NCBI GenBank assembly: GCA_051710525.1 | Contig: JBPESR010000007.1 | Location: forward strand, 8,994-72,993 | DNA: 64,000 bases | Source: Symbiopectobacterium sp. | GTDB lineage: Bacteria; Pseudomonadota; Gammaproteobacteria; Enterobacterales; Enterobacteriaceae | Reading direction: 5' to 3' | Part shown: positions 1 through 59,980 of the stretch, in pieces | Position numbering within the stretch: the stretch's first letter is position 1 | Layout of the letters: every line of letters starts with the position of its first letter | Notes under the pieces: generated by a model | The model's database searches: none | Told to the model about the DNA's origin: nothing | Seen by the model: the letters and a program-made list of their open reading frames with translations, nothing else | Made by a program: the position numbers and the translations under genes

Positions 1-1003
1 TGTGAAGTCACATAAGAAAAAATTTGCACAGCCCATTTTAATTATTTCACCACGACCTGATGTGATGACTAATATTGTTAGTCAGTTGTTAATGCATCAT
101 TTAGCTGATGTCATACCGCATGAAGCGGATTTTTTTACTATGAATGATAATCCAGCTGCCAGCGATGCCATAGCGGTTATTATCGTCGATATTGACGATG
201 TGGATAATGTTGAACTTATTATGCAGTGGATAATGTTGAACTTATTATGCAGATGGTTGCGCTACTCATCCCAGTTTCGGCAAAACCGATTCTGGTGGGC
301 AATAATGACTCAATCTGCTTTGCACATGCGTTGATGATGGCAGGAACCAACTATAGGCATATTGGATCACAGTTAGCGCAATTTCCCAATCTGATTCGTG
401 ACCCTATTCCGGCTACGCGTAACAGAGTTACGATGAAAATCAGCGTTCTGGGATGCAAAGGAGGGGCAGGTGCATCCACTGTAGCACATCAGCTTTTTAA
501 GGCTGCTGGAATGCTGACCTCAATACCAATGCTATTGGTGCAGTGGTGCAGCGGTAGTTGGGATTTGGATTTATTGTTAGCGAAGCATTACCCAGCGACG
601 GCAGCATTGCCGATCTTACCGCTCATCAGTCGGTAAAGATGGAAACGTGCGACGCAGCATGGCTGTATGAAGATACCGCGTTTAATCGATATAATCTGGC
701 TTTCTTTGATTATGGAATTCATACCTCGAACAGTAGCTGGAACAGGTAGTTATGCAGTACAATGTTATTGTGTTGGTGATTTCACGGGCGTTAGCCTCAT
801 TACTTGTGGCGAAAAATATACTTGAAGAGTATAAACGTTTTTTTCTGGCAAACCCGCTGAAAGAAACGCGTATTTTTCTGTGTTTAAACGAGAGTCATCC
901 CAAAAATACGGATGAGCTTGTTAATGCTGATATTGAAGAGTATCTTAGACTTGTTATTTTTAGCGTAAATGCCTATAACGTTCATCATAATCCACTCTCC
1001 TAA
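1..1003 (+). pseudogene. tadZ: Tad pilus assembly protein TadZ/CpaE-like, fragmented, 5' end outside window
   Basis: Deviant P-loop GCKGGAGAST in ORF 226..636; directly upstream of tadA; split over several frames, including by a 26-bp duplication at 200-251. Confidence 0.65.
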
Positions 1004-1181
1004 GAGAATTCACTTTATCGACTTGCTGCTTACCTATTAGGCAAGTCATTGGGCCCTAAGTCCTCTCGTAATGTTCTGTTTTCCCTGCCGACTTTTCGTC
1101 GTACTGCGCGTCAAAATGCGATCGTGTGATTGTTGGTCTTTTTGATATCTGAGCGGTGGTAAACAGAAAAAGAGGGAAAAA

Positions 1182-2497
1182 GTGATGAATATTGAAACTG
1201 AAATGACCAGCACATTGCTCTATTTCCGCGAGCAGGTGCTTAAAAATATCGATTTAGAGCGCATTGATGAGTTGAAAAATCAGCGCTATGCACTGCTGCG
1301 AGAAGTTAACGACGCCATTCAGCGCGGGATGAATAACACAGGACAATATCTTTCAATCCGGGTTTGCAACTGCTGATGTAAGCTAATTGCCGATGAGATT
1401 ACGGGATATTGACCGCTGCGTGAGTTGATGGAAGATGAAAGTGTCAGTGACATTCTGGTTAATGGGCCTGAACGTATTTTTGTTGAGCGAGCGGGGAAAT
1501 TGAAATTAGTTGATAAGCGTTTTATCAGCAACTGAAATTAGTTGATAAGCGTTTTATCAGCAACGAGCAGTTGATTGATATTGCCCGTCGACTGGTTCGC
1601 CGGTGGGGTGCCGCCTTGATGACTCGCAATCGTTGATCGATACGCGCATGCCTGACGGTAGTCGCCTGAACGTGGTCATCGCGCCTGTTGCACTGGATGG
1701 TGCCTCTATCTCAATTCGTAAGTTTGGCTCCATTCGTAAGTTTGGCTCCGTGCAGAGAACGCTGGCCAATCTGATCGAGTACGGCAGTATGAATGAGATG
1801 ATGGCGAATTTCCCGGTCATCGCGAGTCGCTGTCGCGTAAATATTGAGTCGCTGTTGCGTAAATATTATTGTCTCTGGCGGGACCGGGTCTGGGAAAACA
1901 ACCCTGCTAAATGCCATGTCCCATTATATTGATGAAGGTGAGCTGGTACTGACGCTGAAAGATGCAGCTGAGTTGCGTTTGCAGCAACAGCATGTTGTCA
2001 GGCTGGAAACCCGTATGGCCGGTGTCGAGAAGCAAGGCCAGATCACTATGCGTCATCTCGTCGTCAATGCACTGCGTATAAAACCCGATTGCATCATTAT
2101 CGGGGAGTGCCGGGGAGAAGAAGCGTTCGAAATGTTGCAGGCAATGAACAGCTGCCATGATGGATCCATGTCAACCTTGCATGCCAACTCTCCGCGTGAT
2201 GCCTTAGCGCATCTTGAATGTATGGACATGATGTCAAGCGCGGCACTTCCCCTTGCAGCAATCCGCCGCAATATCGTATCGGCAGTTCATATCGTTGTTC
2301 AGGTATCGCGCCTGCCTGATGGCTCACGAAAAGTAATTAACATTACAGAAGTAATGGGTATGGAAGGCGATAACATTATCTTGCAAGATATCTTCAGCTA
2401 TTCCGCCAGGCCGAACGATCTGAAACGGGGGCAATTCAAGGTGGTTTTACCTCTTACGGTTTATTACAGCGCTCAACCGTATACCAACAGGCAATAA
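1182..2497 (+). pseudogene. tadA: Tad/CpaF secretion ATPase, fragmented
   Basis: Walker [19 protein letters not shown] and GSMSTLHAN motifs; broken by stops, frameshifts and duplications at 1501-1564, 1714-1749, 1824-1867. Confidence 0.9.
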
Positions 2498-2546
2498 TCC
2501 GTGATATGCAATAGCCCTTGAAGCAACTGTTCGGAAATAAATTACC

Positions 2547-3375
2547 ATGATCTTTATCTTCAGCATGCTTCTGCTTGGCTTGCTTCAACTCGTATTCGAG
2601 TATCGGAAGAAAAATATTCAACGAATACGTCACATTGCTACTGTACCTAGAACTAACAAGTTAACCCACCAACTTAAGCAGCATGCATTATGGCAACGTT
2701 TGGTGGCACTTATCAGTGATATTTCTCGGTATTTGCTAGGTAAAGGTATGACCTGGCGTTAAAAAAATGGTTTGGTTGTATTCGCTGTTTAAGGGGTAAG
2801 CATTTATAGTAGCCTGGAGTATTTACATATTGATTTACTTATTGTATCGCCGTTCATGTTATTTATTGTTGACATTGTATATACGTTTCCAACGGAGTAA
2901 AAAGCGGCGCGAATAGCATTCGAAACCACATTTTCTGAGGCGTTGAATATTATTAACATTAACAGTGTTATTAGTGCTGGGAATTTAGTGATGCTCGGCA
3001 TTGAGCAGTGTGGTAAGAAAATTGCAGGTATTGTTGGCGAAGAGTTTAGAAAAATATCTAAGCGTCTTGAAATTGGTGAGGATATTGAAAGTGTTTTGAT
3101 GGAATCGTATCAACGTTTACCTTATAGGGAGTATTATTTTTTATTGTCACTGTCTTGGTGAATATGAAAAGGGGAGGGCAAATCAAGGACGTCATGATGC
3201 GGTTAGCAACCATGATCTCTAATGAACGAATTATTGATAGAAAAATTGGCCATGATATCTGAAGTAAGAATGTCTGTAAAATATTAACGGCCATTCCGAT
3301 TTTTTCTTTTTTTTATAAAAAACACTTCACCATACAGTTTTGCTATTCCTCTGGCATTTTTATCCTTTGGTTAAT
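2547..3375 (+). pseudogene. tadB: Tad inner-membrane platform protein TadB, fragmented
   Basis: Fragments such as KISKRLEIGEDIESVLMESYQRLPYREY and downstream GGQIKDVMMRLA; position after tadA. Confidence 0.7.
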
Positions 3376-3398
3376 GATGAATAAGTTATAGGTAAGTT

Positions 3399-4340
3399 AT
3401 GTTTTATCTGTTTTCACTGCTCATGATGGTTCTTGGTCTGGGTGGACTTCTCATCTTTTTAAAGATAAGAATAAAAACAAATCATTAATGTTGTTGAGTG
3501 TCTAATATAAACATTCATTGAATGATACTGAAAATAAGGATAACGCATCGTATGTTGAGACGATTTTGATAAAATCAAGCCGTTTGATTTCGATTGCATC
3601 ATTATTAGATAAAAATGTGATACTAAAAATGTTAACCGTTGTTACGCCTTGGCGGTGTATTTTTTTTACTAAAAAAGTGGAATCCTCTAAGTGTCAATGA
3701 ATGTTTTACTCATTTGTTTTTTAATCCTGAGTGTATAAGTTATTATTTTACCTGATGTGGTCAAAAAAAACTTATTTTGGTAAAACGGTTAAAAGGCATA
3801 TTAAAAGATTTACCTTTTATTATTGAGATTTACCTTTTATTATTGATATGATGTCGGTTTGTATTCAGTCAGGAATGATAGTTGAAAAATCTATGCGATA
3901 TTTTAGTGATAAAACTAAACATATTAATAAGAATATTGCCAAAATTCTGGAACGTGTCATGCTAAAAGCATGAGGTTAGTGGGATCAATGCCGCGTTGGA
4001 ACAACTTTATCAATAGATAGCCAGTAATCAAATGAGAATGTTCTGTACTACAAAACAGTATAGTATAAACTTTGGCTCATCTATTTATAAAATGTTAATC
4101 GCTTTAGGTAAGGAAATGAGAGATATACAGTTACTCGATATGGCAGGATATACAGTTACTCGATATGGAAGAAAAAGTGGCAAGCTTATCTGCCAAAATG
4201 ACCATGCCGATGATTGGCTTTATTATGTTTCCATTATTGGCAATAATTGTCGGACCAGGTTTTATAGGGATCATGGCATTATGGGGAAATTAGTTGATAT
4301 TTTATTATCACTTTTAGTTTTTTTCTCGCAAAATGTGTAA
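3399..4340 (+). pseudogene. tadC: TadC, fragmented
   Basis: Hydrophobic N-terminus, fragment CIQSGMIVEKSMRYF, position; duplications at 3806-3845 and 4122-4171. Confidence 0.6.
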
Positions 4341-4344
4341 ATGT

Positions 4345-4930
4345 GTTATAAAAAGCGGAAACCACAATGCTATTGACGAGGAGCAGAAGGAGTTTATTCT
4401 TACCAAGATGAATGATTTTTAAGGGCTAATTAAGTTATATCGTGAAAAACTAAATCAAAAAGAAGATAAAAAAACACGGTATATTTTGGCAAATCATTAC
4501 CACTCTGTGATGGATTATGAATCATCAAGGCATTATTTAGCGCCTTTGCTGGTCGATCATCCCGATGAAGATATTCTGTTACTTGAAGGCAAGAATTTGC
4601 TGGAACAAGGACACATTGCTGAAGCGCTTGACAGAGTTAGGGCGGCTTTGAAAGTTAGGGCGGCTTTGAATAAACCCACTGAAAATGGGGAAGTATTAAA
4701 ACACAAGGCATGTTACTGGCGCAGTATGGCAATTATCTTGCCCCAAAGTATCATTTGATAAAGTCCGAACTCATTTTGTTGATGAAGATAAAGTCATTAA
4801 TAACCTCGCGATGCTGGCCATAAAGAGCTCGGTGATAGAGCGCTGAACCAGATAGTCTACGAATTACAAGGCGTGACGGCGAGTGATGACATATTGCGCA
4901 TAGGAAAAAAACTTGATGGCAGATGGTGAT
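4345..4930 (+). pseudogene. tadD: TadD TPR protein, fragmented
   Basis: TPR-like fragments (YESSRHYLAPLL, NNLAMLAI); position; boundaries approximate. Confidence 0.55.
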
Positions 4931-5252
4931 GGTAATGTAAGGTCAATTTCAATTGCACATAAAGATAAAAATATCATGCACATAAAGATAAAAATATCAT
5001 TTTGGTGAAGTTTTTATTAAAGAAAAAATGGATAAGTTGAAGGTATTTCACCTTGAGACTGAGAAATCAGCACCGGAGAAATTAGTGTTTGATTTCTATC
5101 ACGGCTAATTTTTATCGGAGATATTCTCTGAGTTGTATCATCAAACGGGTTTTTATTGTATTAGGTTGATTACCGGATCGTCTGTTGATTCATTATACCA
5201 TATAATTCAGTGGATTATAAGCGCTTCTGGTATTTTTAAGGGATGATGTAAA

Positions 5253-5681
5253 GTGAAAATAGAAGGGATACTGGCAATGGCTATTAGTATAATATTGACG
5301 TTCGTCTGTTATACGGATATTCGTTGTCGTAAAATTACCAATGCGACGACATTGCTCATTTTTTCTCTCTCACTTTTATTAGTCTTTCATCATCCTGAAG
5401 ATCTTTCTTTAACATTGCTGTTGCTATTGTTTTGTCTTGGTTTTGTTTTATCTATAGCCTGTATAATCGATACAGGCGATGTTGAAATAGTATATGTATT
5501 ATCAACGGGGCTTTCAACGACAGAGATGGGTAATTTTTTATTTTTGACGGGAATAGTAGGGATCCCACTTTCGCTGTTTACGTATTTTTTATATTATCGA
5601 CTGTTCTCAAAACAGAATATCACCACCATACCCTATGGTGTTGCTATTTGCTCTGGCTATTGGTTGTTGTGGGCAGTGTAA
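5253..5681 (+). CDS. Prepilin peptidase TadV/CpaA (A24 family); open frame with degenerate motif
   Basis: YTDIRCRKITN, TGDVE and PYGVAI motifs; multiple hydrophobic segments. Confidence 0.7.
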   Translation: MKIEGILAMAISIILTFVCYTDIRCRKITNATTLLIFSLSLLLVFHHPEDLSLTLLLLLFCLGFVLSIACIIDTGDVEIVYVLSTGLSTTEMGNFLFLTGIVGIPLSLFTYFLYYRLFSKQNITTIPYGVAICSGYWLLWAV

Positions 5682-5703
5682 GTAAAGTAAAAGGAATGAA
5701 AAA

Positions 5704-6240
5704 TTGAACAACAAGAGAAAAAATGTGCTTTTATGGTATCGTTCGAGTACTGGCAGTGCCGCGCTTGAGTTTTCTTTGATATTTATCCCTTTTATTATGG
5801 CATTTCTTTTTCTCGCAGAGCTTTGTCGGGTGATTTATATTTCATCTTCCTTGGATTTTGTTCTGGCTGAATCCAGCTATCGTACATCGCTTCGTCAGCC
5901 TGACAGCGATTATAAAGCTTATTTTACGAAAGCCTTAAATATTTTACGAAAGCCTTAAATAAGCGTTTAGGTGTATGGCCATTATTTACCAAAGAAAATA
6001 AGATAAGTGCATCTGCACAATATAAGATAAGTGCATCTGCACAATATTGTGATGACATTGCTACGTTAATTGAGAATGGCAAACATTGCTCATCGATTCA
6101 TGCAGTTTGAAAGCCGTTAGCATTGTATCACGTGAATATTATTACCAGCCTCTCTTCTTTTTATTTCCGACAGTGATAGTTGAACAGCAATGGAAGAGAA
6201 AGGTTGCTTTTGTTCAGGAATTTCAGCTAGGAGAATTGTA
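5704..6240 (+). pseudogene. tadE: TadE pseudopilin, frameshifted
   Basis: GSAALEF prepilin-like motif followed by a hydrophobic helix; 20-bp duplication at 5921-5960 breaks the frame. Confidence 0.7.
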
Positions 6241-6242
6241 AC

Positions 6243-6865
6243 ATGTCTTCGCTTTGCAGAAATGGAAAATTGCTGTCTGAGATAAAAAATGAGAAAGGAA
6301 GCGTAGCGATTGAGTTTTTTTTCTACTTTTTTTGTCGTACTACTCTGTTTTTTATTAGTTGATTACGGTCGATATTTTTAAACAAAGGCTGTATTGAACG
6401 TGTCAATCATTCTCTTGCCACAGTGCTGCACGAACGTACTGTACTTTATCATGGGAAAGAGATCTTGACACAGGATGATGTCAATCAGTTAGATTTATTG
6501 GCAAAGATGCTCTTGGGTGAATCCCACATCGGAGAAAAGTATAATCTCTATATTGATGCTATCTATTTTGATGAAGATATAAAGTCAGAAAAATAAAAGG
6601 TAAGCCCATATCCTTTACTCTAGTTCATGTAACCGATGGCAATTATCCAAAGTCAGAGTTTGCAAAGGATTTCACTAAACGTATTCCGCTTTCCCCTTTT
6701 TCTCATGCTAATACTGGATCGACGCGAACTGAGCATTGGCTACCTGTTTATCAGGTCACTCTCTGTACTCAAGTTCAATATAGTTTGTTACTAAAAATAT
6801 TAGGTGCTATTGGTATAACCAGAACTTCGTATAACAAGAACTTCAATGTAACAAGAACTTCAATG
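6243..6865 (+). pseudogene. tadF: TadF pseudopilin, fragmented and truncated
   Basis: NEKGSVAIEF motif; ends at the junction with the nrdE remnant. Confidence 0.65.
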
Positions 6866-8344
6866 CAGGTTCATTTGTCCGAGGCCAATGGCATAGGAGT
6901 CATCATTACCTTTTGCGATGGAGGGCACAGAGCGATGTGACTCATGTCAGAGACCGCCGTCAATGCACGAATTGCGGTTTCAACCGTATTGCCGAAATTA
7001 AGTGAATCCATGGTTTTAGCGATGTTCAACGACCCTAGATTACACGAGATATCCTTTACGATGGGCGATAGCCTAAGTCGTCATCGTAAAGGCTGGCTTC
7101 GTTGACCTGAAGGATCTCCGAGCACAGTTGACCTGAAGGATCTCCGAGCACAGGTTATTCATGGTGATTCGGCCATGAATCGGTTGGCGCGATTCACCGT
7201 ATCTTCAAACATCTAAAACTGTATTTCGGCCAGAATCTGGAAAAACTCGCGCGCCTTGATCTGCGATTTGCGGATGCGTTTATCGTTTACTATCTCATGG
7301 TACTTCTCGCTCACGCCGATTTCCGAGAAGGGCACTCCATACACCTGTTCCACATCGTAGGGAGAGAACAGGTACATCATCTGATTGGTTTTCGCCAATT
7401 GAAAGGTGATATCCGGGATCACGACGCCAAGATAAAATGTTTTAATCCGGATTTTCTCATCGGCGTTTTCACGCTTGGTATCGAGAAAATGCAAAATGTC
7501 GGGATGGTGCGCATTGAGATAGACTGCACCTGCACCTTGCCGTGCACCCAACTGATTGGCATAGGAAAAAGCATCCTCCAGCATCTTCATGATGGGGATG
7601 ATATCGGAAGACTGATTTTCAATACGTTTGATCGGTGCACCGGTTTCTGATCGGTGCACCGGTTTCGCGGATCTTGGTCAGGATAAAGGCAACGCCACCG
7701 TCACGCTTGGAGAGTTGTAACGAGGAATTGATGGTGCGCCCGATAGATTCCATGTTGTCTTCAATACGCAACAGAAAACAGGAGACCAACTCACCGCGCT
7801 GTTTTTTACCGCAGTTGAGAAAGGTAGGTATCATAGGTTGAAAGCGACTGCTGATGATCTTATCGACTAATGCGCTGGCAAGGTGGGTATTGCCCTTGGC
7901 AAACGCCAAAGCAACCAGACAGACCCGGTCCTCATAGCGTTCCAGATAGCGTTTGCCATCAAAGGTTTTCAGCGTATAGCTGATGTAATATTTGAACGCG
8001 CCAAGGAAGGTTTGGAAACGAATTTGTGCGCATAGGCCTGCTGAAACAGGCTCTTGATGCTGAAACAGGCTCTTGATAAAGCTGAATTGATACTGTTCCA
8101 ATACCTCTGCTTCAGAGTAGCTTTCTTCTACCAGATAGCGCAGTTTCTCCTCCAGATTGTGGAAGAACACCGTATTATGGTTTACTTGCTGAAGGAAATA
8201 GCGTCGTGCGGCCAGCCGGTCTTTTTCAAACTGAATATGCCCGTCAGCGTCATAGAGATTCAGCATGGCATTAAGCGCATGGTAATCGAGCATGTTGTCG
8301 CTTTTACCCTGTGTTGGTGTATTGATTACGGATGTTGTTGCCAA
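6863..8344 (-). pseudogene. nrdE: Class Ib ribonucleotide reductase alpha subunit; 3' third deleted
   Basis: [32 protein letters not shown] and GLGQMNLH motifs; frameshifts and duplications at 7101-7152, 7629-7666, 8040-8077; nrdF absent. Confidence 0.92.
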
Positions 8345-8730
8345 AATTGGATTACTCCTTTTTGCATATTGATTACATCTTCCTGTGTGCCGAGCAGTTC
8401 AAAACGATACAGGTACGGCACCTGGCATTTCTGCGCGATAATGTCGCCAGCCAGACAATATGCGGTGCTGAAGTTCATATTGCCTGCCGCAATCACGCCG
8501 CGCAGACCGGACCGGTTGTTGGCGTCGTTGAGGAATCGAATGACCTGGTGCGGCACGGCACCTTTGCTGCTTCCTCCTCCGTAGCTGGGCATAACCAGAA
8601 TAAACGGTTGTGCCACGTTGAGTACCGGCTGGTCTTCTGCTATCGGAATGCGCAGGGCGGGCAGACCCACACGAACGATAAACCGATGCGTGTTTTCCGA
8701 TTGGCTGGAAAAATAGACCAGTGGATTCAT
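8326..8730 (-). CDS. nrdI: Flavodoxin-like NrdI
   Basis: 134-aa open frame: [30 protein letters not shown]. Confidence 0.9.
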
Positions 8731-8739
8731 TGCGACCCC

Positions 8740-8962
8740 TTATTGCAACTGCTCTGAGTTTATCCGGGCAAAACCGCTCCAGTGGTCGTCCTCTGTCATA
8801 ACGACCGGTACCTGTTGATAGCCCAATGCCCTTACCCGCTGTAATGCCTGCTCATCTTCTGTCAGGTCTATAAGCTGATAAAAGTAATACCTTGTTTATC
8901 CAAAGCACGGCACGTCGCATTGTACTGAACACAGCACGGCTTAGTAAAATAGTAATACGCAT
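8740..8962 (-). pseudogene. nrdH: Glutaredoxin-like NrdH, frameshifted
   Basis: MRITI..KPCCVQ and QQVPVV...WSGF in shifted frames; upstream of nrdI. Confidence 0.8.
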
Positions 8963-9090
8963 GATTCGCATTTACTTTTTGGTTAAAGTCAGTATGGTAA
9001 AGTGGCCTTGTGACACCCTTGCGCTGCCGCCTTTCCTTGCGCTGCCGCTTTTTTGCGAAACCACCTCATCGATACCGTGGCATGTTTAAA

Positions 9091-9135
9091 CACATGATGT
9101 AGATGTTTTAAATTTCAACCATACAATATATGGTG
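9091..9135. promoter_or_regulatory. Probable tandem NrdR boxes
   Basis: cacatgatgtagatg (9091-9105) and atacaatatatggtg (9121-9135), 30 bp apart, upstream of nrdH; resemble the NrdR consensus. Confidence 0.5.
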
Positions 9136-9257
9136 ATTAGTGTGGATTCGTTGGGGAGGAGATAGGAATGGCGAAATAGGACAGTGCTACCAAGGAGAAA
9201 CGGGGGCGTGGTTGAGAATAAAAAAAATTGGACCACTGTGGGCCCGCTGCTGCGTCA

Positions 9258-10036
9258 TCTACAAAACTGGAAAATTCCACTGTAGTAGATCTATCGTATT
9301 TAACTGTAGTAGATCTATCGTATTTAATGATAGAGCAGATAGGTGATTCTTTTGAGTTCCACCGCCTCCAGATTTTCAGGCGCGGCATAGTGCCGCAGAT
9401 CGAAATCCTTGAGCGGCATTTCTTCTGAAGTTCTGAATGGAATTGATTTGATGGTTGATGAAATGTTTCACACCGTTGATATCACGCGTGAAACCGCGTA
9501 CGCGATAGTCAATGGTGACAATATCGGATTCCAACTAGTGAATCAGGTAATTCAGCGCTTTTAGCGGGGAAATCACGCAGCAGGTTGACACTTCAATATC
9601 GGCGCGAAAGGTGCATAGGCCACTATCGGGATGGCTTTTCGGGTAGGTATGTACACAAATATGGCTCTTGTAAATATGGCTTTTGTCTAGATGCGCAACC
9701 ACGGAATGGGGCAGCGGTCCGGGATCTTATGAGCTATCGACATCGCGCGGATCTATCGGCTCTTCGCTGAGCGGATCCATCGGCTCTTCGCTGACAAGAA
9801 TGGTCACGCTTGCGCCCTGAGGGTCGTAGTCCTGTCATGCGATGTTCAAAATATTGGCTCCAATGATCGTACAGGTCTCCGTCAGGATCTCTGTTAAACG
9901 ATTGGCGTTATACTGTTCGTCAGTACAGGCGATATAGCCGTCACGATCGTCAGCGGTTTTGGCATAGAAGATATCATAGATACAAAAGCTCAGGCTTTTG
10001 GTCAGGTTATTAAAGCCGTGCAGTTTCAGCTTGTGC
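9258..10036 (-). pseudogene. speD: S-adenosylmethionine decarboxylase
   Basis: [42 protein letters not shown]; stops, deletions and duplications. Confidence 0.9.
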
Positions 10037-10120
10037 AGTTTTCGTAACCCCTTTATAGTGTTTTCGTAACCCCTTTATATATATAGTATAGTTGTATGCG
10101 TCATAGTATAGTTGTATGCG

Positions 10121-11045
10121 TCAGGCTAATGAATTCAGTAGATATTGTGGTAGCGCAAAGCAGCGGATTGTAATAACGGCAGCTGATGCCTAAAGATGCC
10201 TAAAGAGTGATAACGGGCCGCAAGCGTGTCCTGTGCTACCAGGCGCAATGTCAGATCGTTGCTGCCCCAGGCAAAGGGCATGATACCACCGTAATAGGTG
10301 GGGATCGCTACCTGATAGAAGGTGACATCCGAAAAAGAGCGAAAAAGAGCGGTTGAGTAAGCGGTGGCTGTTGATGGCTTCATCCAGGCCGCCTGGATTC
10401 AGGCTGCGCGCACAACCATCATAATACGCTGAGCTGAAAGAAAAATACGCTGAGCTGAAAAGATACGCTGAGCTGAAAAGGCTTTCTCCGGGGCCGATGG
10501 GATCGGTGCAATCAGAAATGATCACATCAAACCTATTGCAGTTTTGGCTGGCAAAATCAACGCCATCGGCAATCACCAGCGTTAAACGCGGATCGTCATA
10601 AGCTCCGGCACTGTGGTTGGGAAGGTACTGGCGACAGAAACTGACCACACCCGCATCAATCATCACCATGGTGATGTGTTCTACTTACCATGGTGATGTG
10701 TTCTATTCCGGATGGCGATACACTTCGCGCAGGATGCCGCCATCACTTCGCGCAGGATGCCGCCATCGCCGAAAATGAGCACGCGCTTGGCAGCGCCATG
10801 TGTCAACAGAGGAACATGGGTTAGCATTTAGTGTTAGTGGTAGATAAACTCGTCGCGTTCGGTGGTTTGCACCACGCCATCCAGTGCCATCACGCGCCCC
10901 AGAGCCGCATTTTCGAAGATAATCAGATCCTGATGGGCGGTTTTTTCATGAAACAGACCTGGTCAATGGAAAAATATTGGCCGAAGCTGGCATGTAACGT
11001 TTAGCTGGCATGTAACGTTTCATGCCACATCCCTTTTCGGGACAT
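10121..11045 (-). pseudogene. speE: Spermidine synthase
   Basis: [44 protein letters not shown]; at least six duplications. Confidence 0.92.
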
Positions 11046-49525: not shown

Positions 49526-49556
49526 CTATTATGTCCTTTGAAAAAATTATTTATGT

Positions 49557-50855
49557 TTAAAAATACGGCGACCAGGCAGGGAATTTAACCTGTCCATCAG
49601 TTGCCGGAAAACGCGCTTTGAAACGTCCGTCAGTAGACACCAGTTGCAGTACTGAGCCCAGCCCTTGTTTAGAGCTGTAAATCACCATCGTGCCGTTCGG
49701 TGCGATACTCGGCGTTTCGTCTAGATAGGTGCCAGTAATTACTTGAATGGCCCCCGTCACTAGATCTTGTGTAGCAATATGTTGAGTGCCACCGGTGGAG
49801 CTCACCATCACTAGCATTTTGCCATCGCCACTGACTTCTGAGTCCTGATTCTGCGCACCTTCCCAGGTGATACGCTGCGGAGGCCCGCCATTGATGTTGA
49901 TTTTGTAGACTTGCGGACGTCCAGCCTGATCCGAAGTATATGCCAAAGTTTGGCTGTCGGGGAACCAGGTTGGCTCAGTATTGTTGCTGCGACCATCCGT
50001 CACTTGACGGATCTGACCGGAGCCGATGTCCATGACATACAGGTTCAGGCTGCCGCTTTTGGAAAGTGCAAAAGCCAATTTGTTACCATCAGGGGAAAAC
50101 GCCGGAGCACCGTTGTGACGCGGGAAGGACGCAACCTGAAAGATTGCACCATTGGCCAACGTTTGAATCACCAGCGCAGAACGACCGCTTTCAAAGGAAA
50201 CGTATGCCACTTTGCTGCCATCCGGCGACCAGGCCGGTGACATCAGCGGTTCCGGAGAACGGTGCACTACAAACTGGTTGTAGCCATCGTAATCAGATAC
50301 GCGCAGTTCGTAAGGGAACTGACCGCCGTTGGTCTGCACCACATAGGCGATACGGGTACGGAAGGCACCTTTGATACCAGTTAGCTTCTGGAACACTTCA
50401 TCACTGGCAGTATGCGCGGCATAGCGCAGCCATTGCTTGGTGACCTTGAACTGGTTTTGCTCCAATACGTTGCCTGGGTTACCCGAGGTATCAACCAGTT
50501 GATAAGAGATCACGTAACTACCGTCCGCACCGGGCTGAACCTGGCCAACGATGACAGAGTCAATCCCCAGTGCCGTCCAGGCAGCAGGCGTGACTTCCGA
50601 GGCAGAACCCGGCTGCTGCGGCATACGGCTGGGATCGATCGGATCGAATTTACCGCTGTTGCGTAGATCCGCAACAACGATACCGCCAATATCTTCATCT
50701 TCCGGCGCTACGCCACCGCCAGCCCACTTGAACGGAACCACGGCGATAGGACGTGCGGAGTCAACCCCTTGGGTAATCTCGATACGCACTTCGGCGTGTA
50801 GCGCTGTGACCCACAGCATTAAAAAACCTAGTGCAACTTTACATGCCTGCTTCAT
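49557..50855 (-). CDS. tolB: Tol-Pal periplasmic protein TolB
   Basis: [23 protein letters not shown]40-like repeats; in-frame 6-bp duplication at 50691-50702. Confidence 0.97.
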
Positions 50856-51011
50856 TTTATCTTATCTCCCTTATCCAGAGGTATCGCCTCGGATAAATTA
50901 TCAGAATTTTAACAAACCGGTATCACCAAAACACAATACCCGTGGATTGTGCTATCATACTTGTCCTAAAGGTGCCATGCGGCACCGTTAGCATCGTACT
51001 TCACGCCACGA

Positions 51012-51977
51012 TTATTGCGGTTTAAAATCAATCGGTGCGTTTTTAAAAGCTTCATACACATCCGTGCTTGGCGGCTTCGGTATTCTTGCCTGCTTGGCTG
51101 CGGCAATCGCTGCCTGACACAGTGCCGGATCGCCACTTTCCGCTTCAACGGAAACGAGCAGACCGTCCGGTGCCAGCTTGATGCGCAATGTACAGGTTTT
51201 ACCCCGATAAAGCTGCCAGTCATAGAATTTACTCTGGATCTCCGCGCGCATTTGGCCGCTATAACTGTCCAGAGCGGCACCTGAGGCACCGCTCTTTTTC
51301 GCCGCGTTGGCACCGGCTGGCGCATCGCCACCTGATTTAGGCGCGTTTTTCGACGACGCCAAACCACTGAGCAGATCGTCAACGGAATCAGACTGTGCAG
51401 CGGCTTCTGCGGCGGCTTTTTTATCCGCAGCCGCCTTGGCTTTTGCGTCTGCTGCGGCTTTGGCTTTCGCATCAGCTACCGCTTTGGCCTTCGCTTCTTC
51501 TTCAGCCTGCTTTTTCGCGGTAACAGCTGCCTGTTTCTTCACTGCTTCTTCAGCTTTTTTCTTCGAGTCAGCGGCTGCTTTGGCTTGTTGTTCAGCTTCG
51601 GCTTTAGCCTTCGCGGCAGCAGCTTCTGCCTGCTTACGCTGTTCGGCCTGCTCTTGCGCCTGCTGCTTGGCGTCCTCTTGCGCTTGAAGACGTTCTTTCT
51701 CAAGCTCTTTTAAACGCTGTTGCTCAGCAGCCTGCTTTTGCTGCAACTCTTCATGCTGCTGGCGGTTGTACTGTTCAACGACGGCATTGGGATCAACCAT
51801 TACCGCATCGATTGCCGAGCTGCCACCGCCGCCGACACTGGCATCCATAGAGACACTGGCATCCATAGAGAAGTGGAATGAGCTCCACACCAACAAAGCA
51901 ATCAGTATGATGTGCAAAACGGCCGAGACAATAATGGCACGTTTCAACTTATCAGGTTTTTCGGTGGCCTTTAGCAC
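51012..51977 (-). CDS. tolA: TolA (about 321 aa, shortened helical domain)
   Basis: KLKRAIIVSAVLH, IDAVMVDP, Ala/Lys repeats; in-frame 18-bp duplication at 51834-51869; GTG start inferred. Confidence 0.92.
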   Translation of the reverse strand: MLKATEKPDKLKRAIIVSAVLHIILIALLVWSSFHFSMDASVSMDASVGGGGSSAIDAVMVDPNAVVEQYNRQQHEELQQKQAAEQQRLKELEKERLQAQEDAKQQAQEQAEQRKQAEAAAAKAKAEAEQQAKAAADSKKKAEEAVKKQAAVTAKKQAEEEAKAKAVADAKAKAAADAKAKAAADKKAAAEAAAQSDSVDDLLSGLASSKNAPKSGGDAPAGANAAKKSGASGAALDSYSGQMRAEIQSKFYDWQLYRGKTCTLRIKLAPDGLLVSVEAESGDPALCQAAIAAAKQARIPKPPSTDVYEAFKNAPIDFKPQ

Positions 51978-52055
51978 AATCGGTTCCCCAAATACTGTAT
52001 TGCCGTAATAAACGATTGCCAGAAAAAACATCACGCTTTGACTGCAACACATTGA

Positions 52056-52478
52056 TTATATAGGATCAGTCATCAGACCTACTGATTTGACCCCAGCTTG
52101 TCGCAGCAAGTTTAGCGCTTTGATAATCTCATCATAAGGCACGTCTTTCGCGCCCCCGATCAGAAACACTGACTTGAGGTTTTCAGCCATACGCGCCTGG
52201 GCTTCCGCCACAATCTGCTCAGCGGGAAGTTGTTCCATCCGCTTTTGTTCAATAACCAGACTGTACTGACCAACGCCAGACACTTCGACAATCACCGGTG
52301 GATTATCCTTGCTGGAGACGGTTTTAGAATCTGTCGCATCAGGCAAATCCACTTCCACGCTCTGTGTGATGATGGGGGCCGTTGCCATGAAGATCAGCAA
52401 CAACACCAGCAGCACGTCCAGTAATGGAACGATGTTAATTTCGGATTTTAGATCCCGGCGCCCACGTGAACGAGCCAT
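52056..52478 (-). CDS. tolR: TolR
   Basis: EINIVPLLDVLLVLLLIFM. Confidence 0.97.
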   Translation of the reverse strand: MARSRGRRDLKSEINIVPLLDVLLVLLLIFMATAPIITQSVEVDLPDATDSKTVSSKDNPPVIVEVSGVGQYSLVIEQKRMEQLPAEQIVAEAQARMAENLKSVFLIGGAKDVPYDEIIKALNLLRQAGVKSVGLMTDPI

Positions 52479-52490
52479 GCTGCCTCCTGA

Positions 52491-53571
<1,081 letters not shown>

Positions 53572-53700
53572 TTTACATCCCGGTAACACAACGAAACACC
53601 GCTACTATACTACGCAAGAGAAATAAGGTTTGAAATGGGTTGCTTAGAGGGAAATAAAATATCATGGGTTGGCTACAACCTATAACCAAACGGAATAGAA

Positions 53701-53827
53701 CATACCCGCCCTACTTCAAGCTGCAGATGCGTTGGCTACGCTTACTCACCCGAATCACTTACCTAAGTAAGTTCACCGGGATTCGCTCTCTTTCCACTTT
53801 CTTACAACTCGAATTATTTAGGGTAAA
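53701..53827. repeat. ERIC element (127 bp)
   Basis: Minus strand tttaccctaaataattcgagttg...gtaagtga...gcagcttgaag..gggtatg matches the ERIC architecture. Confidence 0.85.
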
Positions 53828-53829
53828 TA

Positions 53830-54123
53830 CTAGCGAAAGAAGTAAATGAACCCTGCGAGCAGGATCACAAAGGCAGGAAAAGGCGCAAAATCACGCGCCA
53901 CAGCAAGCGTTGCTGGCGAAACCCTACCCCGTATATCACACCGGTACAAACGGCCCATAACAGAAACGGGCCTTGCCACACTTCCAACGCGCTGGTGCGT
54001 GCAGCAAAAGCGTGTCGGGTCCCACATCACACAGCCTGCCATCAGCAACGCCATGAGCAGGACAAGAACCCGTAACGGGCCCTTGTCCATCAGTTGGTAG
54101 AGTTTATCAACCAGACTGCTCAT
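53830..54123 (-). pseudogene. ybgE: YbgE; full length, but the central ~39 codons are read out of frame
   Basis: MDKGPLR..WDPTRF; +1 and -1 in T runs; native sequence WAVCTGVIYGVGFR lies in another frame. Confidence 0.75.
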
Positions 54124-54242
54124 TGCGCGTTATCTTCTGCCGCTTTCGCTTTAGTTGCCTCGCTCTGCTCTAGCGCCAGAGCGGTAATAATCCCCAGCGA
54201 GCAAGCAAGAAGAGTTCCGAGTATCCAGGCAAAATACCACAT
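54120..54242 (-). CDS. cydX: Cytochrome bd-I small subunit
   Basis: MWYFAWILGTLLACSLGIITALALE; 40 aa; not in the supplied ORF track. Confidence 0.92.
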   Translation of the reverse strand: MWYFAWILGTLLACSLGIITALALEQSEATKAKAAEDNAQ

Positions 54243-54257
54243 CATTAAGCTCCTTAC

Positions 54258-55397
54258 TTAGTACAGAGAGTGGGTGTTCTGTTCAACATGCTCTTTGGTA
54301 ATGCGACCGAACATTTTGTAGTAACACCATGCCGTATAAGAGAGCACGCTGGGTACAAAAATAATGGCGGCGATCGTCATCACTTTCAGCGTGTACAGGC
54401 TTGAGGTGGCATCCCACATGGTCAGACTCACGTTCGGTTGCGTGATGGAAGGCATCACAAACGGGAACATGGCAACCCCAGCGGTCAGGATAACGCAGGC
54501 GATAGTCAGCGAACTGAACAGGAAAGCCAGGCCGCCCTTGTTCGCACGTGCCGTCGCGATAGTCAGCAGTGGCAGCACCACGCCTATCAATGGGATAGCC
54601 CACAGCACCGGATGCGCAGTGAAGTTAGCTAGCCAGGCCCCGGCCTGATGCGCCACTTCTTTGTGCAGCGGGTTAGAATCAGCCGCCTTGTCCAACACGG
54701 AGGTAATGGTAAAACCATCAATACCGTAGATCACCCACACGCCGGCCAACGCAAAGGTAACCATCATCACTAACGCCGACAGTTGAGCCGCATCTTTCGA
54801 GCGCACATACAGATCGCCATTGGTACGCATCATCAGGTAGGTAGCACCTTGCGCCAGAATCATAGTCAGGCTGACAACGCCTGCCAACAGGCCAAACGGG
54901 TTCAGCAGTTGGAAGAAGTTACCGGTGTAGAACAGGCGCGCATTGGCATCAATATGGAACGATACGCCCTGCAACAGGTTACCGAACGCAACACCAATCA
55001 CCACTGGCGGCACAAAGCTACCGATGAAGATGCCCCAGTCCCACATATTGCGCCAGCGCGCGTCTTCCAGTTTAGAGCGGTAGTCAAAACCGATCGGACG
55101 GAAGAATAGCGATGCCAGCAACAGGATAATTGCGATATAGAAACCGGAGAATGCGGCGGCATACACCATCGGCCAGGCAGCAAATAGTGCCCCGCCCGCG
55201 GTGATCAGCCACACCTGGTTACCGTCCCAGTGCGGAGCGATACTGTTAATCATGATACGGCGTTCTACATCATTACGCCCCATCACGCGCACCAACACGC
55301 CAACCCCCATATCGAAGCCGTCAGTGATAGCAAAACCGATCATCAGCATGCCAATCAACAGCCACCAGATAAAACGTAATACTTCATATTCAAACAT
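54258..55397 (-). CDS. cydB: Cytochrome bd-I subunit II
   Basis: 379 aa, DGFDMGVG, PHWDGNQVWLI. Confidence 0.97.
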   Translation of the reverse strand: MFEYEVLRFIWWLLIGMLMIGFAITDGFDMGVGVLVRVMGRNDVERRIMINSIAPHWDGNQVWLITAGGALFAAWPMVYAAAFSGFYIAIILLLASLFFRPIGFDYRSKLEDARWRNMWDWGIFIGSFVPPVVIGVAFGNLLQGVSFHIDANARLFYTGNFFQLLNPFGLLAGVVSLTMILAQGATYLMMRTNGDLYVRSKDAAQLSALVMMVTFALAGVWVIYGIDGFTITSVLDKAADSNPLHKEVAHQAGAWLANFTAHPVLWAIPLIGVVLPLLTIATARANKGGLAFLFSSLTIACVILTAGVAMFPFVMPSITQPNVSLTMWDATSSLYTLKVMTIAAIIFVPSVLSYTAWCYYKMFGRITKEHVEQNTHSLY

Positions 55398-55410
55398 AGT
55401 GGACTCCTGT

Positions 55411-56979
55411 TTACCTTGCGTCCTGAGTCAGCGTCAACGGGTGTTCAAAGTGGTAACGTCCTGTTTTCAAGCTGCTTGGGCCGAGGCGAGCGAATTTGAA
55501 CATCAGATACATTTCGGCGACCAGGAACAGAGTATACAAACCACAGATCAAGCCCATCGATAGCAGAATGTCACCTGCCGTCAGCGAAGAGTTCGCCACC
55601 GCCGTGGGCAGCACTTCACCGATAGCCCACGGTTGGCGACCGTACTCGGCAACAAACCAACCAGCTTCAACCGCAATCCACGGTAACGGAATACCGAACA
55701 AGGCAGCACGCAATAGCAGCTTGTTTTTACCGATACGGTTTCTGATAATGCTCCAGAACGACAGGCCGATAATCAGCAGCATCAGCACGCTACAGGCCAC
55801 CATGATGCGGAACGAGAAGTAAAGCGGCGCAACGCGAGGAATAGAGTCCTTAGTTGCCTGCTGAATTTGCGCTTCAGTCGCATTAGCAACGTCCGCGGTG
55901 TAACGTTTGAGCAGCATGCCGTAACCCAGATCCTGTTTGGACTGGTTAAAGGCTTCACGCACAGCCGGATCGGTATTACCCGCGCACAACTGCTCCAGCA
56001 ACTCATACGCTTTCATGCCGTTGCGAATACGTACCTGGTGACTATCCATCAGTTCACGCAGCCCCAGTACCACGCCGTCCGTCGAACGCGTGGCAATAAG
56101 CCCCAGCATAAACGGAATGTGCACAGCGAACGAGTTCTCCATTCTCTCCTGATTGGGAATGGCGAACAGCGTAAAGCTGGCAGGTGCCGGTTGGGTTTCC
56201 CACTCGGCTTCAATCGCGGCCAGTTTGGTTTTTTGTACGTCGCCAATTTCATAACCGGATTCATCACCCAGTACGATAACTGACAGCACAGCTGCGGTGC
56301 CGAAGCTGGCAGCAATGGCAAATGAGCGTTTGGCAAAGGCCAAATCACGGCCCTTAAGCAGATAGTAAGCACTGATGCCCAGAATGAACATGGCACCCGT
56401 GGTGTAACCGGCAGCGACAGTATGAACGAACTTCACCTGCGCAACCGGGTTCAACACCAGCTGTGAGAAGCTCACCATTTCCATACGCATGGTTTCAAAA
56501 TTGAATTCAGAAGCGATGGGATTTTGCATCCAGCCGTTTGCAACCAGAATCCACAGCGCGGAGAAGTTAGACCCCAACGCCACGAACCATGTCACGGCCA
56601 TGTGTTGCACTTTGCCCAGGCGATCCCAGCCAAAGAAGAACAAGCCAACAAACGTTGATTCGAGGAAGAACGCCATCAGGCCTTCGATAGCCAGCGGCGC
56701 GCCAAAAATGTCCCCGACATAGTGGGAGAAATAGGACCAGTTAGTACCGAACTGGAACTCCATGGTCAGCCCGGTGGCCACGCCCAGCGCAAAGTTAATA
56801 CCAAACAACTTGCCCCAGAACTTGGTCATATCCTTGTAGATTTGTTTGCCAGTCAACACATAGACCGTTTCCATAATCGCCAACAAAAACGCCATCCCCA
56901 GCGTTAATGGTACGAAAAGGAAATGGTACATCGCGGTTAAGGCAAACTGTAAACGTGACAGTTCGACTATATCAAACAT
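55411..56979 (-). CDS. cydA: Cytochrome bd-I subunit I
   Basis: 522 aa from [13 protein letters not shown]; GRQPW. Confidence 0.97.
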
Positions 56980-57421
56980 CTTGACTCCTTGCTCCTCGCA
57001 GGAAGGTGTTAGCATTTACAACAAGCCGCTAAAACCCAAAAAGAACACAACAGAAAATTGCTTCAGCACCGGCTTTTATAAACAGCGAGAGTTCACCGTT
57101 AAACCAATAACACGCCAAAGAAAACATGTTAAAAATAGCTAAAAACGATACCACAAACAGGGTAGCGGCTATATTATGCCTATAATCCCCTACAGCTATA
57201 TTATGCCTATAATCCCTTACAATAAATAGGTTTTTACGTGACACAGATTGTGTTTTTGGTTTCAAACCAACTTTCCCCTTTCGGAGCACCTTTGGTGAAA
57301 ATTGATGTGGCCAATTTAAGCGTATTTCTCCATTGATAGCCAGCTTCAGATTTTGATCTGACGCAAATAGCACGCTCAATGTTAATTTCTGGTTTACCAG
57401 GTTTTCGCCATACGATTATTT

Positions 57422-57436
57422 GTTAAATAAATGTAG
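57422..57436. promoter_or_regulatory. Possible ArcA box in the cydA upstream region
   Basis: gttaaataaatgtag resembles GTTAATTAAATGTTA; cydAB is ArcA-regulated in enterobacteria. Confidence 0.35.
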
Positions 57437-57647
57437 AATAGACTTAACAATAACATCAATTAGCAAACTAATTTTTGACTTGCTCACGCAGATTTAATTT
57501 AACGCACTATCAAGTGTAGATGATTTAATCATAACCATATTGTTTAAATTGTTAATTTAATATTGCCATGGTTAATATATTGAGCGGTGAGTTAATAACG
57601 GTTCTTAATTATTTTTTGTTTTCATCTTTTATTACTGTACCGACAAT

Positions 57648-57673
57648 AAAAAAGGACCATCCAAAGATGGCCC
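57648..57673 (-). terminator. Probable terminator after sucD
   Basis: ggaccatc-caaa-gatggccc stem next to an A6 run. Confidence 0.5.
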
Positions 57674-57796
57674 CCAGACTGCTGGCAAATCACTTTACCC
57701 TCGTCATCCTCGGCGAAAGCTGACGATGGCTAGCATATGTCACTCTTGTTTAATAAGGTCGGTTCATCAGCAGCAACTCACGCGTATGGTAAGGCG

Positions 57797-58669
57797 CTAA
57801 CGCGCCAACACAGCTTTCACGGCATCGCCGATATCCGCCAGGCTGCGGACCGTTTTCACGCCAGCCGCTTCCAGCGCCACGAATTTATCATCCGCCGTAC
57901 CTTTACCACCCGCAATGATGGCACCTGCATGGCCCATGCGTTTGCCCTTCGGTGCCGTCACACCGGCGATGTATCCTACCACCGGTTTGGTTATATGCGC
58001 TTTGATATAGGCTGCCGCTTCCTCTTCCGCCGTACCACCGATTTCACCGATCATCACGATGGCCTCGGTTTGTGGATCCTGTTCGAACAACGCCAGAATA
58101 TCGATAAAGTTGGAACCCGGAATCGGGTCACCGCCGATACCAACACAGCTTGACTGACCAAGCCCGGTGTCGGTGGTCTGTTTCACCGCTTCGTAGGTCA
58201 GCGTTCCTGAACGAGAAACGATCCCCACCTTGCCCGGTTTGTGAATATGGCCGGGCATAATGCCAATTATGCACTCACCGGGAGTGATAACACCCGGACA
58301 GTTAGGCCCAATCATCCGCACGCCGCTTTGTTCCAGCTTCACCTTCACGGTCAACATATCCAGCGTCGGGATACCTTCAGTGATACAGATGACCAGTTCA
58401 ATTCCCGCATCAATCGATTCCAGAATCGAGTCTTTGCAAAACGGTGCCGGGACGTAAATAACCGAAGCCGTCGCGCCGGTCGCTTCCACCGCTTCGCGCA
58501 CGGTATTAAACACCGGTAAGCCCAAATGTTCTGTGCCGCCCTTCCCGGGCGTCACGCCTCCCACGAGCTTGGTACCGTAAGCGAGTGCTTGCTCAGAGTG
58601 GAAGGTGCCTTGGCTGCCGGTGAATCCCTGGCAAATGACTTTAGTGTGCTTATCAATCAGAATAGACAT
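57797..58669 (-). CDS. sucD: Succinyl-CoA synthetase alpha subunit
   Basis: 290 aa, [11 protein letters not shown]. Confidence 0.98.
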
Positions 58670-59835
58670 TATTTACCCTCCGCTGCCTTCACAACCTGCT
58701 GAGCTGCATCTGTCAAACTGGTGGCGGCAATGATGTTCAGGCCGCTGTCTGCCAGTTTCTTGGCACCCAGTTCCGCATTGTTTCCTTCCAGGCGCACCAC
58801 AACAGGTACGTCAACGCCCAGTTCGGCTACCGCACCGATGATACCGTCAGCAATCAGATCACAGCGCACGATACCGCCAAAGATATTGACCAGTACCGTT
58901 TTCACGGTATCGTCGGAGAGAATGATTTTAAAGGCTTCGGTCACACGCTCTTTGGTTGCACCACCCCCCACATCCAGGAAGTTGGCCGGCGCTCCGCCAT
59001 GCAGCTTGACGATGTCCATGGTGCCCATGGCGAGACCCGCACCGTTCATTATGCAACCAATGTTGCCATCGAGCGCCACATAGTTCAGTTCCCACTGTGC
59101 GGCATGCGCTTCGCGAGAATCTTCCTGGCTCTGATCGCACATTTCGCGCAGCTCCGGCTGGTGGAACAGCGCATTGCCGTCAGCTCCGAGTTTACCGTCC
59201 AGACAGACCAGATCGCCCTGCTTGGTGATCACCAGCGGATTAATCTCCACCAGTGCCAGATCACGTTCGAGGAACAGGGTCGCCAGACCCATGAAAATCT
59301 TGGTGAACTGTGCCACTTGCTTGCCGCTCAGCCCCAGTTTAAAGGCCAACTCACGCCCCTGATAAGGCTGTGGGCCGGTCAATGGGTCGAGCGCGGCTTT
59401 ATGAATCAGTTCCGGCGTCTCTTCCGCCACTTTTTCAATTTCAACCCCACCTTCGGTCGAGGCTATAAACACCACACGACACGTAGCGCAATCGACCACG
59501 GCACCGAGGTAGAGTTCTTGATCGATGTCGGTTGCAGCTTCCACCAGAATCTGATGCACAGGCTGGCCTTGCGCATCCGTTTGGTAGGTAACCAAACGTT
59601 TACCCAGCCAATTTTCCGCAAACGCGCGAATATCTTCTTTGCTGCTCACTACTTTTACGCCGCCCGCTTTACCGCGGCCACCCGCATGTACCTGGCATTT
59701 CACTACCCACGGACCGGCACCAATTTTCGAGGCAGCCTCTTCTGCTTCGCAGGGCGTGGTGCAGGCATAACCGGTCGGCGCCGGCAGGCCATATCGAGCA
59801 AAGAGCTGTTTTGCCTGATATTCATGTAAATTCAT
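58669..59835 (-). CDS. sucC: Succinyl-CoA synthetase beta subunit
   Basis: 388 aa, [20 protein letters not shown]. Confidence 0.98.
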
Positions 59836-59918
59836 GATGTTCTATCCATCTCGGTTTGAAGATAAGTCGCATGACTTTCTTGATATTATTGGATAACGCC
59901 GCCAAGGGCGGCTGCATA

Positions 59919-59980
59919 GCACAAAGAATACCTTTACCGCACAAAGAATACCTTTACCGGCACAAAGAATACCTTTTACC
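59919..59980. repeat. Three copies of a ~20-bp unit in the sucB-sucC spacer
   Basis: gcacaaagaatacctttacc x3; the third copy is slightly altered. Confidence 0.9.

Follow-up and report, generated by a model that had tools for sequence, protein, structure and literature searches.

The 64,000-nucleotide stretch analyzed here (the window; C7:8994-72993 in the draft genome of a Symbiopectobacterium, which we call G000) is densely populated by short segments that lie duplicated head to tail. These tandem duplications (TDs) are derived mutations, recent or still under way, in a single lineage of Symbiopectobacterium, and we consider it close to certain that they are real and specific to that lineage. 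They represent one process with loose specificity, whose sequence signature at the two ends of each duplication makes it very probable that TDs arise from paired nicks whose 3′ ends converge. The enzyme responsible for the nicks is probably topoisomerase I.

We defined a TD as a perfect two-copy head-to-tail array whose unit is 13 bp or longer in the window and 13-40 bp genome-wide, and all duplications were called in the sequence of the draft assembly (31 contigs). By this definition the window holds 61 TDs, or 70 if units of at least 8 bp are admitted, and Tandem Repeats Finder (TRF) returns 106 rows. A sequence-only reading of the same DNA had reported more than 70 short duplications, an impression that genome-wide calling amply bears out: G000 carries 2,412 perfect TDs (0.95/kb), and every large contig has a density of 0.84-1.2/kb. 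The seven examples singled out in that reading are all perfect two-copy arrays lying where it had placed them, with units of 26, 32, 19, 23, 17, 17 and 31 bp, and at most one further base (0-1) matches at their junctions. Unit length follows a continuous, unimodal and bell-shaped distribution (mean 21.5 bp, standard deviation 5.0, 5-95% range 14-31 bp). A composition-matched, first-order Markov (Markov-1) simulation of a 342-kb contig produced zero TDs above 8 bp. TD density climbs with AT content, from 0.4/kb at 60% GC to 1.8/kb at 40% GC. Placement upstream versus downstream of genes gave a weak and confounded contrast, which we left out of the argument.

Other Enterobacterales loci (1.7 Mb) have 0.007 TD/kb, making G000 approximately 135 times denser. 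The suspicion in the sequence-only reading that a lineage-specific process is at work is likewise supported by nine congeners, sampled over 31-100 kb each, which have 0-0.03 TD/kb compared to 0.95/kb in G000. These nearly TD-free congeners include the strongly reduced genomes G002 (2.0 Mb), G012 (2.5 Mb) and G009 (1.1 Mb). When window TDs were compared with three relatives by per-event BLAST and block alignments, 37-41 of the 61 proved to be cleanly single-copy in each relative and none was shared with any of them, so that every classifiable event is single-copy in the relatives; the rest are nested or adjacent arrays, or lie where relatives have no match. A four-way alignment covering 53 kb reveals 56 window-specific insertions of 12-40 bp versus 6 deletions in the same size range, along with 44 insertions and 80 deletions of 1-3 bp. 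The relatives have longer syntenic blocks, and large deletions therefore still dominate net size. Window-specific substitutions amount to 3.5%, versus 0.85% for the nearest relative.

Two further characteristics speak to the origin of these sequences. TDs whose unit length is a multiple of three (3n) occur at 0.056/kb within open reading frames (ORFs) of at least 300 amino acids (aa) and at 0.39/kb outside them, a seven-fold depletion, and this comparison is not circular because in-frame TDs leave ORFs unbroken. The 3n share of all TDs is 55% within such ORFs and 33% outside. A block of intact ORFs in the window (16200-23250) is free of TDs, showing purifying selection against them. In addition, the two copies of a duplication differ by 0, 1, 2 or 3 mismatches in 983, 223, 79 and 66 cases, respectively (net of background), with single mismatches scattered along the unit, and these counts constitute an age spectrum. 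If a constant rate is assumed, TD age corresponds to approximately 1.6% neutral divergence, a rough value that would be biased by loss of perfect repeats. By this measure TDs are younger than the dead copies of an IS1-family insertion sequence in the same genome, which lie 4.5% from their consensus.

The anatomy of the junctions bears on mechanism. Extra matches of 0, 1, 2 or 3 bp at the junction are observed in 60, 25, 9.5 and 3.5% of events, compared to 56, 28, 10.5 and 3.5% expected by chance, and therefore there is no microhomology, just as the sequence-only reading had proposed from its examples. In 620 cases the match run equals the period exactly, and in 35 it is one base short, which makes junctions at least 95% precise. 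Both TD boundaries exhibit a position-specific base bias extending from about -6 to +7, and the left position frequency matrix correlates with the reverse complement of the right one at r=0.96. Read 5′ to 3′ into the unit, the boundary consensus is TCWTY^T/A (^ marks the boundary), with T at -5 (0.35), C at -4 (0.36; G 0.125), A or T at -3, T at -2 (0.37) and T or C at -1, followed by positions +1 to +4 that are T-rich and depleted of C. The right end accordingly appears A-rich in a top-strand reading, and we therefore reject an arrangement in which the two cut sites would share a strand. Among the most enriched boundary words are TCATT^A (21-fold), CTTT^AT and CATT^AT (16-fold) and TT^AT (7-fold). 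The pentamer TCNTT occurs in phase, with 71 instances at offset 0 versus approximately 10 at other offsets and a flat profile on the opposite strand; TCNTT^ is 6-10-fold more frequent than in controls 45-60 bp away, and TCNTT^W is enriched 10-fold over local controls.

Boundaries with A or T at -4 retain the same pattern at the remaining positions, motif scores form a single shifted distribution, and the two ends show no correlation with each other. We considered whether two mechanisms are mixed here, but this is ruled out by the identity of the motif for any -4 base and by this lack of correlation. In cross-validated scoring, the true partner site ranks first among 23 candidates in 14% of cases (null 4.3%) and among the top five in 49% (null 22%).

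The IS1-family element (InsB-like C-terminus) serves as a set of natural replicates. G000 retains 117 copies that are 600 bp or longer (92 kb), all of them pseudogenised and differing from their own consensus by a median of 4.5%, and together they hold 155 perfect TDs, or approximately one per 27 substitutions. Mapping TD boundaries onto the consensus reveals reuse of 14 left and 14 right sites, versus 6.9 expected, in a count that excludes identical events that might have been inherited. The left site CATA^TT has been joined with four different right ends, another site also has four partners, and the top hotspots carry C at -4. Because boundary sites are reused with varied partners, we conclude that each TD end is picked separately by local sequence. 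The decayed state of the copies, at this distance from their consensus, also implies an old IS burst that came before most TDs.

Mirror-image ends located on opposite strands exclude slippage, single-nick and flap models, because those predict unlike ends. Rather, of the possibilities raised in the sequence-only reading, a nicking activity with fill-in of staggered breaks is favored by the two-fold symmetric motif, the blunt and precise junctions and the 5′-overhang geometry. Two single-strand nicks would be made on opposite strands, 13-35 nucleotides (nt) apart (mode 21), such that their 3′-OH ends converge, which is the arrangement that leaves 5′ overhangs. A polymerase would extend each 3′ end over the stagger, presumably by strand displacement, leaving the segment present at both ends, and precise rejoining of these ends would create a blunt head-to-tail TD that lacks microhomology.

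In vivo, E. coli topoisomerase I cleaves at an AT-rich, asymmetric motif whose core, TCNTTA/T, is cut (T^A) 4 nt past the conserved C; the enzyme stays attached to the 5′ end while the 3′-OH is left free (PMC9352719). The TD boundary TCNTT^ has the same register, strand and polarity as this type IA cleavage site, with C at -4 in 36% of boundaries rather than in nearly all. TopA is the most likely source of the nicks, as an enzyme that cuts T-rich single-stranded DNA 4 nt 3′ of a C, remains bound to the 5′ phosphate and leaves a free 3′-OH. Either the topoisomerase itself or LigA would carry out joining. Given that TopA conserves bond energy in an activated 5′ phosphate, it could reseal the filled-in ends on its own, and precise joining without Ku or LigD may be understood on this basis. 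Ku was absent from all 14 genus genomes searched, where the positive control worked. With topB a pseudogene and no third type IA topoisomerase gene found in G000, topA is the only intact gene of its type. On balance we consider this explanation as a whole, in which paired nicks by type IA topoisomerase are followed by fill-in and precise rejoining, to be a probable one.

Why would only this lineage be affected? TopA of G000 is intact and keeps E9, D111, D113, E115, G116, R168, R169, R173 and Y177, as well as Y319, M320, R321, H365 and R35, and it has accumulated 26 lineage-specific substitutions, versus 1-11 in seven congeners. Two of these are candidate causes only, as judged from sequence comparison. 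Residue 181, which lies four residues past Y177 and belongs to the element recognizing the -4 cytosine, is P in 131 of 143 diverse homologues and Q in none, and G000 has P181Q. Residue 12, between invariant E9 and K13, is always small and is V in none of 141-143 homologues, and G000 has A12V. In TopA carrying R169A, the base preferred at -4 becomes A instead of C (PMC3467081). E. coli topoisomerase III is described as weakly specific, -4 included (PMC13476441). An altered topA allele, with P181Q adjoining the -4 cytosine pocket and A12V adjoining catalytic E9/K13, is offered as a tentative trigger. It is a similarly tentative thought that a naturally fixed, altered-function TopA allele (P181Q and A12V being the candidates) constitutes a heritable TD mutator that is remodelling the genome of this symbiont, in which two enzymes would cut the opposite strands of a bubble of ~21 nt, fill-in would follow, and the topoisomerases would reseal the ends without ligase or non-homologous end joining (NHEJ).

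Several observations weigh against assigning TDs to topoisomerase I. The catalytic and cytosine-pocket residues of TopA, R168, R169, R173 and Y177 included, are all conserved, and its unusual substitutions could be ordinary symbiont drift. Wild-type E. coli topoisomerase I is reported to be strict for C at -4, unlike TD boundaries, where this position is C in only 36%, A in 28% and T in 24%. The motif contains approximately 0.55 bit of information in total, and the full TCNTT pentamer is found at 2.5% of boundaries. Because congeners possess TopA and yet have no TDs, an allele- or context-specific trigger must be assumed. TD units of 14-31 bp are longer than the 2-19 bp of the E. coli R168C mutant discussed below, and we found no direct biochemical precedent for paired type IA cleavage combined with fill-in and rejoining by the topoisomerase.

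We also surveyed genes for repair and replication. In G000, polA, recA, recBCD, mutSLH, ligA, recJ, sbcB, rnhA, uvrD, ruvAB, recG, dam, dnaE, dnaQ and topA are full length, and xni, rnhB, topB, recQ, ruvC, xerC, xerD, xseA, sbcCD and ligB are pseudogenes or lost. The sequence-only reading had listed genes that deserved inspection: of these, polA, sbcB, recJ, mutSL, recA and ligA are full length and xni is broken, and no HUH enzyme is present, but topoisomerase I was missing from its list. In TD-free G002, xni, rnhB, topB, recQ, xerC, xerD and sbcD are lost as well and xseA gives only partial matches. TD-free G012 is without xni, rnhB, topB and recQ, and G003 and G007 likewise have a broken sbcD. 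As a result, losses of xni, rnhB, topB, recQ, xerC, xerD and sbcCD, which are common to TD-free congeners, were rejected as a sufficient cause. Several G000 pseudogenes, including xni and rnhB, themselves hold TDs and may be victims rather than causes. As a separate observation, xerC and xerD are pseudogenes and ruvC contains a stop (loci C14:39374-40157, C10:79990-81003 and C1:156650-157117) beside intact recA and recBCD, which is unusual for a recombination-capable genome; xerCD loss is also seen in G002.

The findings above bear on four other explanations. Perhaps paired opposite-strand nicks are made by another lineage-specific, T-preferring nickase, or supercoiling or R-loops expose AT-rich bubbles to some other nuclease, with Pol I filling the gaps and LigA joining the ends. 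The motif is indeed weak, with its -4 cytosine in a minority of sites, TD density rises with AT content, indirect effects of supercoiling were left open by Bachar et al. (PMC6954433), and our nuclease screen covered only part of the G000 ORFs. Nevertheless, this possibility seems unlikely to us, since the TCNTT^ boundary reproduces type IA cleavage exactly in register, strand and polarity, and generic melting would not put C precisely at -4. Moreover, no Y1/HUH transposase (IS200 type) or other Y1/HUH enzyme was found in G000, and LigA joins blunt ends inefficiently when Ku is lacking, which sits poorly with junctions that are at least 95% precise. A different view is that TDs reflect defective replication or Okazaki-fragment maturation, wherein 5′ flaps go unprocessed or strands slip after loss of a flap nuclease (Pol I, Xni) or RNase HII. 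Loss of xni and rnhB fits this idea, which the sequence-only reading had entertained, and flap-nuclease mutants of yeast and E. coli are known to raise duplication rates. It does not survive scrutiny well, because polA is full length and its product keeps 15 of 15 checked 5′-nuclease residues, catalytic ones among them, with an ordinary load of 17 lineage-specific substitutions (congener range 2-29). In addition, TD-free G002 and G012 have lost xni and rnhB just as G000 has, both genes are perhaps TD victims in G000, flanking direct repeats are absent, and the model predicts unlike ends where mirror images (r=0.96) are observed. We therefore judge a flap defect to be very unlikely.

Draft status (31 contigs) is a reason to entertain an assembly or library artefact, in which case TDs would be absent from the DNA of the organism. 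An exact-product look-up of TolA with its in-frame TD and a metagenome scan for a 28-mer spanning a junction yielded no match, results that carry no weight either way because both collections may leave out the records of the window itself. An artefact would ignore gene function, whereas long ORFs show a seven-fold depletion of in-frame TDs, and the window has two intact-gene blocks that are nearly TD-free. Substitutions within copies, nested arrays, hotspots and a strand-specific, enzyme-like boundary motif also speak against it. Given the in-frame depletion and the age spectrum, we conclude that TDs are no such artefact, an origin that we find highly improbable. Footprints of mobile elements, in the form of target-site duplications left after excision, might be suspected because the IS1-family element exceeds 100 copies and because transposases typically have symmetric target preferences. 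Such footprints should have a fixed length and an active source, and IS1 duplications are ~9 bp. In contrast, TD units vary continuously over 13-35 bp, all examined IS1 copies are decayed and have themselves been struck by TDs, element sequence is left at no junction, and some 2,400 scar-free excisions would be implausible in bacteria. This origin is scarcely credible.

How much damage do TDs cause? Seven pseudogenes were compared to intact orthologues in G003 (7 kb). Their lesions comprise 12 TD-type insertions measuring 8 bp or more, 7 insertions of 4-11 bp, 24 indels in the 1-3 bp class, 4 deletions of larger size and 309 substitutions. TDs account for approximately 25-40% of indel lesions in this set, and indels of 1-3 bp are equally common. 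The sequence-only reading had called duplication the main pseudogenising force. That TDs break many genes is upheld by these numbers, but the ranking was overstated given the frequency of 1-3 bp indels and the net shrinkage of the region by large deletions; TDs are a major but not sole cause of gene breakage.

The G000 assembly totals 2.63 Mb with 50% GC and an estimated completeness of 99.3%. AceE encoded in the window is 97-98% identical to its homologues in Symbiopectobacterium purcellii and Candidatus Symbiopectobacterium NZEC151, and therefore the organism is a reduced Symbiopectobacterium, a genus whose member genomes span 1.1 to 5.7 Mb. ORFs of at least 300 aa cover just 24% of the genome, which is therefore heavily pseudogenised, and G000 is a shrinking bacterium of insect-symbiont type. 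A literature search found no report linking Symbiopectobacterium with tandem duplication. AceE from a public contig labelled Serratia marcescens (JADMXW010000014.1) is 98% identical to that of G000, and so the label or assembly of this contig probably reflects mis-assignment or contamination.

Table 1. Duplications and related features in the window, by position.
Feature	Position	Strand	Remarks
Span of the 61 perfect TDs (unit at least 13 bp)	200-59981		Repeat calls
Degraded stretches, 1.4-1.5 TD/kb	1-16200, 23250-48000		Repeat calls
26-bp x2 TD	200-252		One copy in G003 and G005; no match in G001
32-bp x2 TD	1501-1564		Junction homology 0 bp; one copy in three relatives
19-bp x2 TD	7629-7666		Homology 0 bp; one copy in relatives
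16/17-bp x4 nested array	12479-12544		
Intact-ORF block	16200-23250		Zero TDs
23-bp x2 TD	23299-23344		Homology 0 bp; one copy in relatives
Adjoining TD pair	25551-25619		17 bp x2 (25551-25584) and 16 bp x2 (25588-25619)
14-bp x3 array	27985-28027		Later expansion of a prior TD
Dead IS1-family copy	32882-33752	-	Nested 18-20 bp and 16-bp TDs at 33364-33472
17-bp x2 TD	35128-35161		One copy in G003 and G005
31-bp x2 TD	41471-41533		One copy in three relatives
Intact-gene block (tolA, aceE, others)	48000-64000		2 TDs in 16 kb (0.12/kb)
In-frame 18-bp (6-aa) TD in intact tolA	51834-51871		ORF 51012-52052, minus strand

The in-frame duplication in tolA is tolerated. Near it, the linker region of this gene also contains low-complexity repeats of 12/24 bp. 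Elsewhere in the window, positions 1-8000 have approximately 40% GC, compared to approximately 50% genome-wide, and a high duplication density; this segment may be horizontally acquired or prophage-derived and is also found in relatives. An imperfect, microsatellite-like array of the 7-bp unit TTCTATC (42652-42809; ~22 copies, 72% matches) sits within a window-specific insertion of ~184 bp that three relatives lack. An element of ~124 bp (53702-53825), which has many tens of matches at 80-88% identity in each larger congener genome, looks like a dispersed repeat of the genus, of the repetitive extragenic palindrome or miniature inverted-repeat transposable element (REP/MITE) type.

The origin of tandem repeats from non-repeated sequence is an open question, for which one E. 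coli topA mutant has provided the only experimental lead. In G000, approximately 2,400 such events have become fixed in nature, and the breakpoint of each is known exactly. Their blunt, precise junctions, opposite-strand symmetry and topoisomerase I-like cut site favor direct enzyme action over indirect effects of supercoiling and define a testable geometry, and TopA residues P181 and A12 are candidates for mutagenesis. These data also indicate that the genome of a young symbiont decays by more than deletion, given that insertions of 12-40 bp outnumber deletions 9 to 1 and TDs make up a quarter or more of gene-breaking indels. If the tentative reading of a fixed TopA mutator allele is true, type IA topoisomerases would directly create de novo tandem repeats; illegitimate joining would thereby gain a new route, and bacteria would have a general source of new repeats.

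Among known systems, rad27/FEN1 mutants and Pol I 5′-nuclease mutants exhibit raised rates of short duplications, and in these mutators direct repeats several bp long flank the events. G000 is unlike these mutators in that homology is at the level of chance and polA is intact. Paired nicks in plants, cited by Bachar et al. as their reference 31 and reportedly described by Schiml et al. in 2016, are more similar, because adjacent breaks on opposite strands in the 5′-overhang orientation yield a TD of the intervening sequence. However, the plant events depend on engineered nickases and eukaryotic end joining, whereas the source of nicks in G000 would be endogenous and bacterial. Trapped eukaryotic topoisomerase II (Stantial et al. 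2020; TOP2A K743N; PMC11477040) likewise involves a 5′-bound enzyme and a 5′ overhang, and fill-in plus joining duplicates the stagger. In that system (PMC11477040) one dimeric type IIA enzyme makes a fixed 4-nt stagger, TDs are 2-4 bp, and NHEJ (Lig4, Pol4, Tdp1) is required; in contrast, G000 has a variable spacing of ~21 nt, implies two type IA nicks and lacks Ku.

The closest parallel is E. coli topA R168C, in which de novo TDs of 2-19 bp arise independently of repeats, at hotspots, at approximately 5e-4 per genome per generation (PMC6954433). That study reported tens of events, did not find a cleavage motif and left the mechanism open (Bachar et al., Nucleic Acids Res 2020, PMC6954433). 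The mutator and G000 are alike in forming short head-to-tail TDs that are repeat-independent (single-copy in relatives, for G000) and that recur at hotspots. Both are linked to topoisomerase I, and the residue altered in G000 (P181, which flanks R169/R173/Y177) belongs to the DNA-binding element that also contains R168. They differ in that R168C is a laboratory allele producing units of 2-19 bp, whereas G000 is a natural lineage with approximately 2,400 fixed events of 14-31 bp, in which R168 is conserved and the allele is a candidate only. In G000, the type IA motif also marks the boundaries on both strands, one at each end, and this speaks for direct paired cleavage. Thus, the phenomenon is known in kind from E. 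coli topA R168C, and what is new is a natural lineage with approximately 2,400 fixed events, longer units, breakpoint evidence for direct paired cleavage, and candidate residues.

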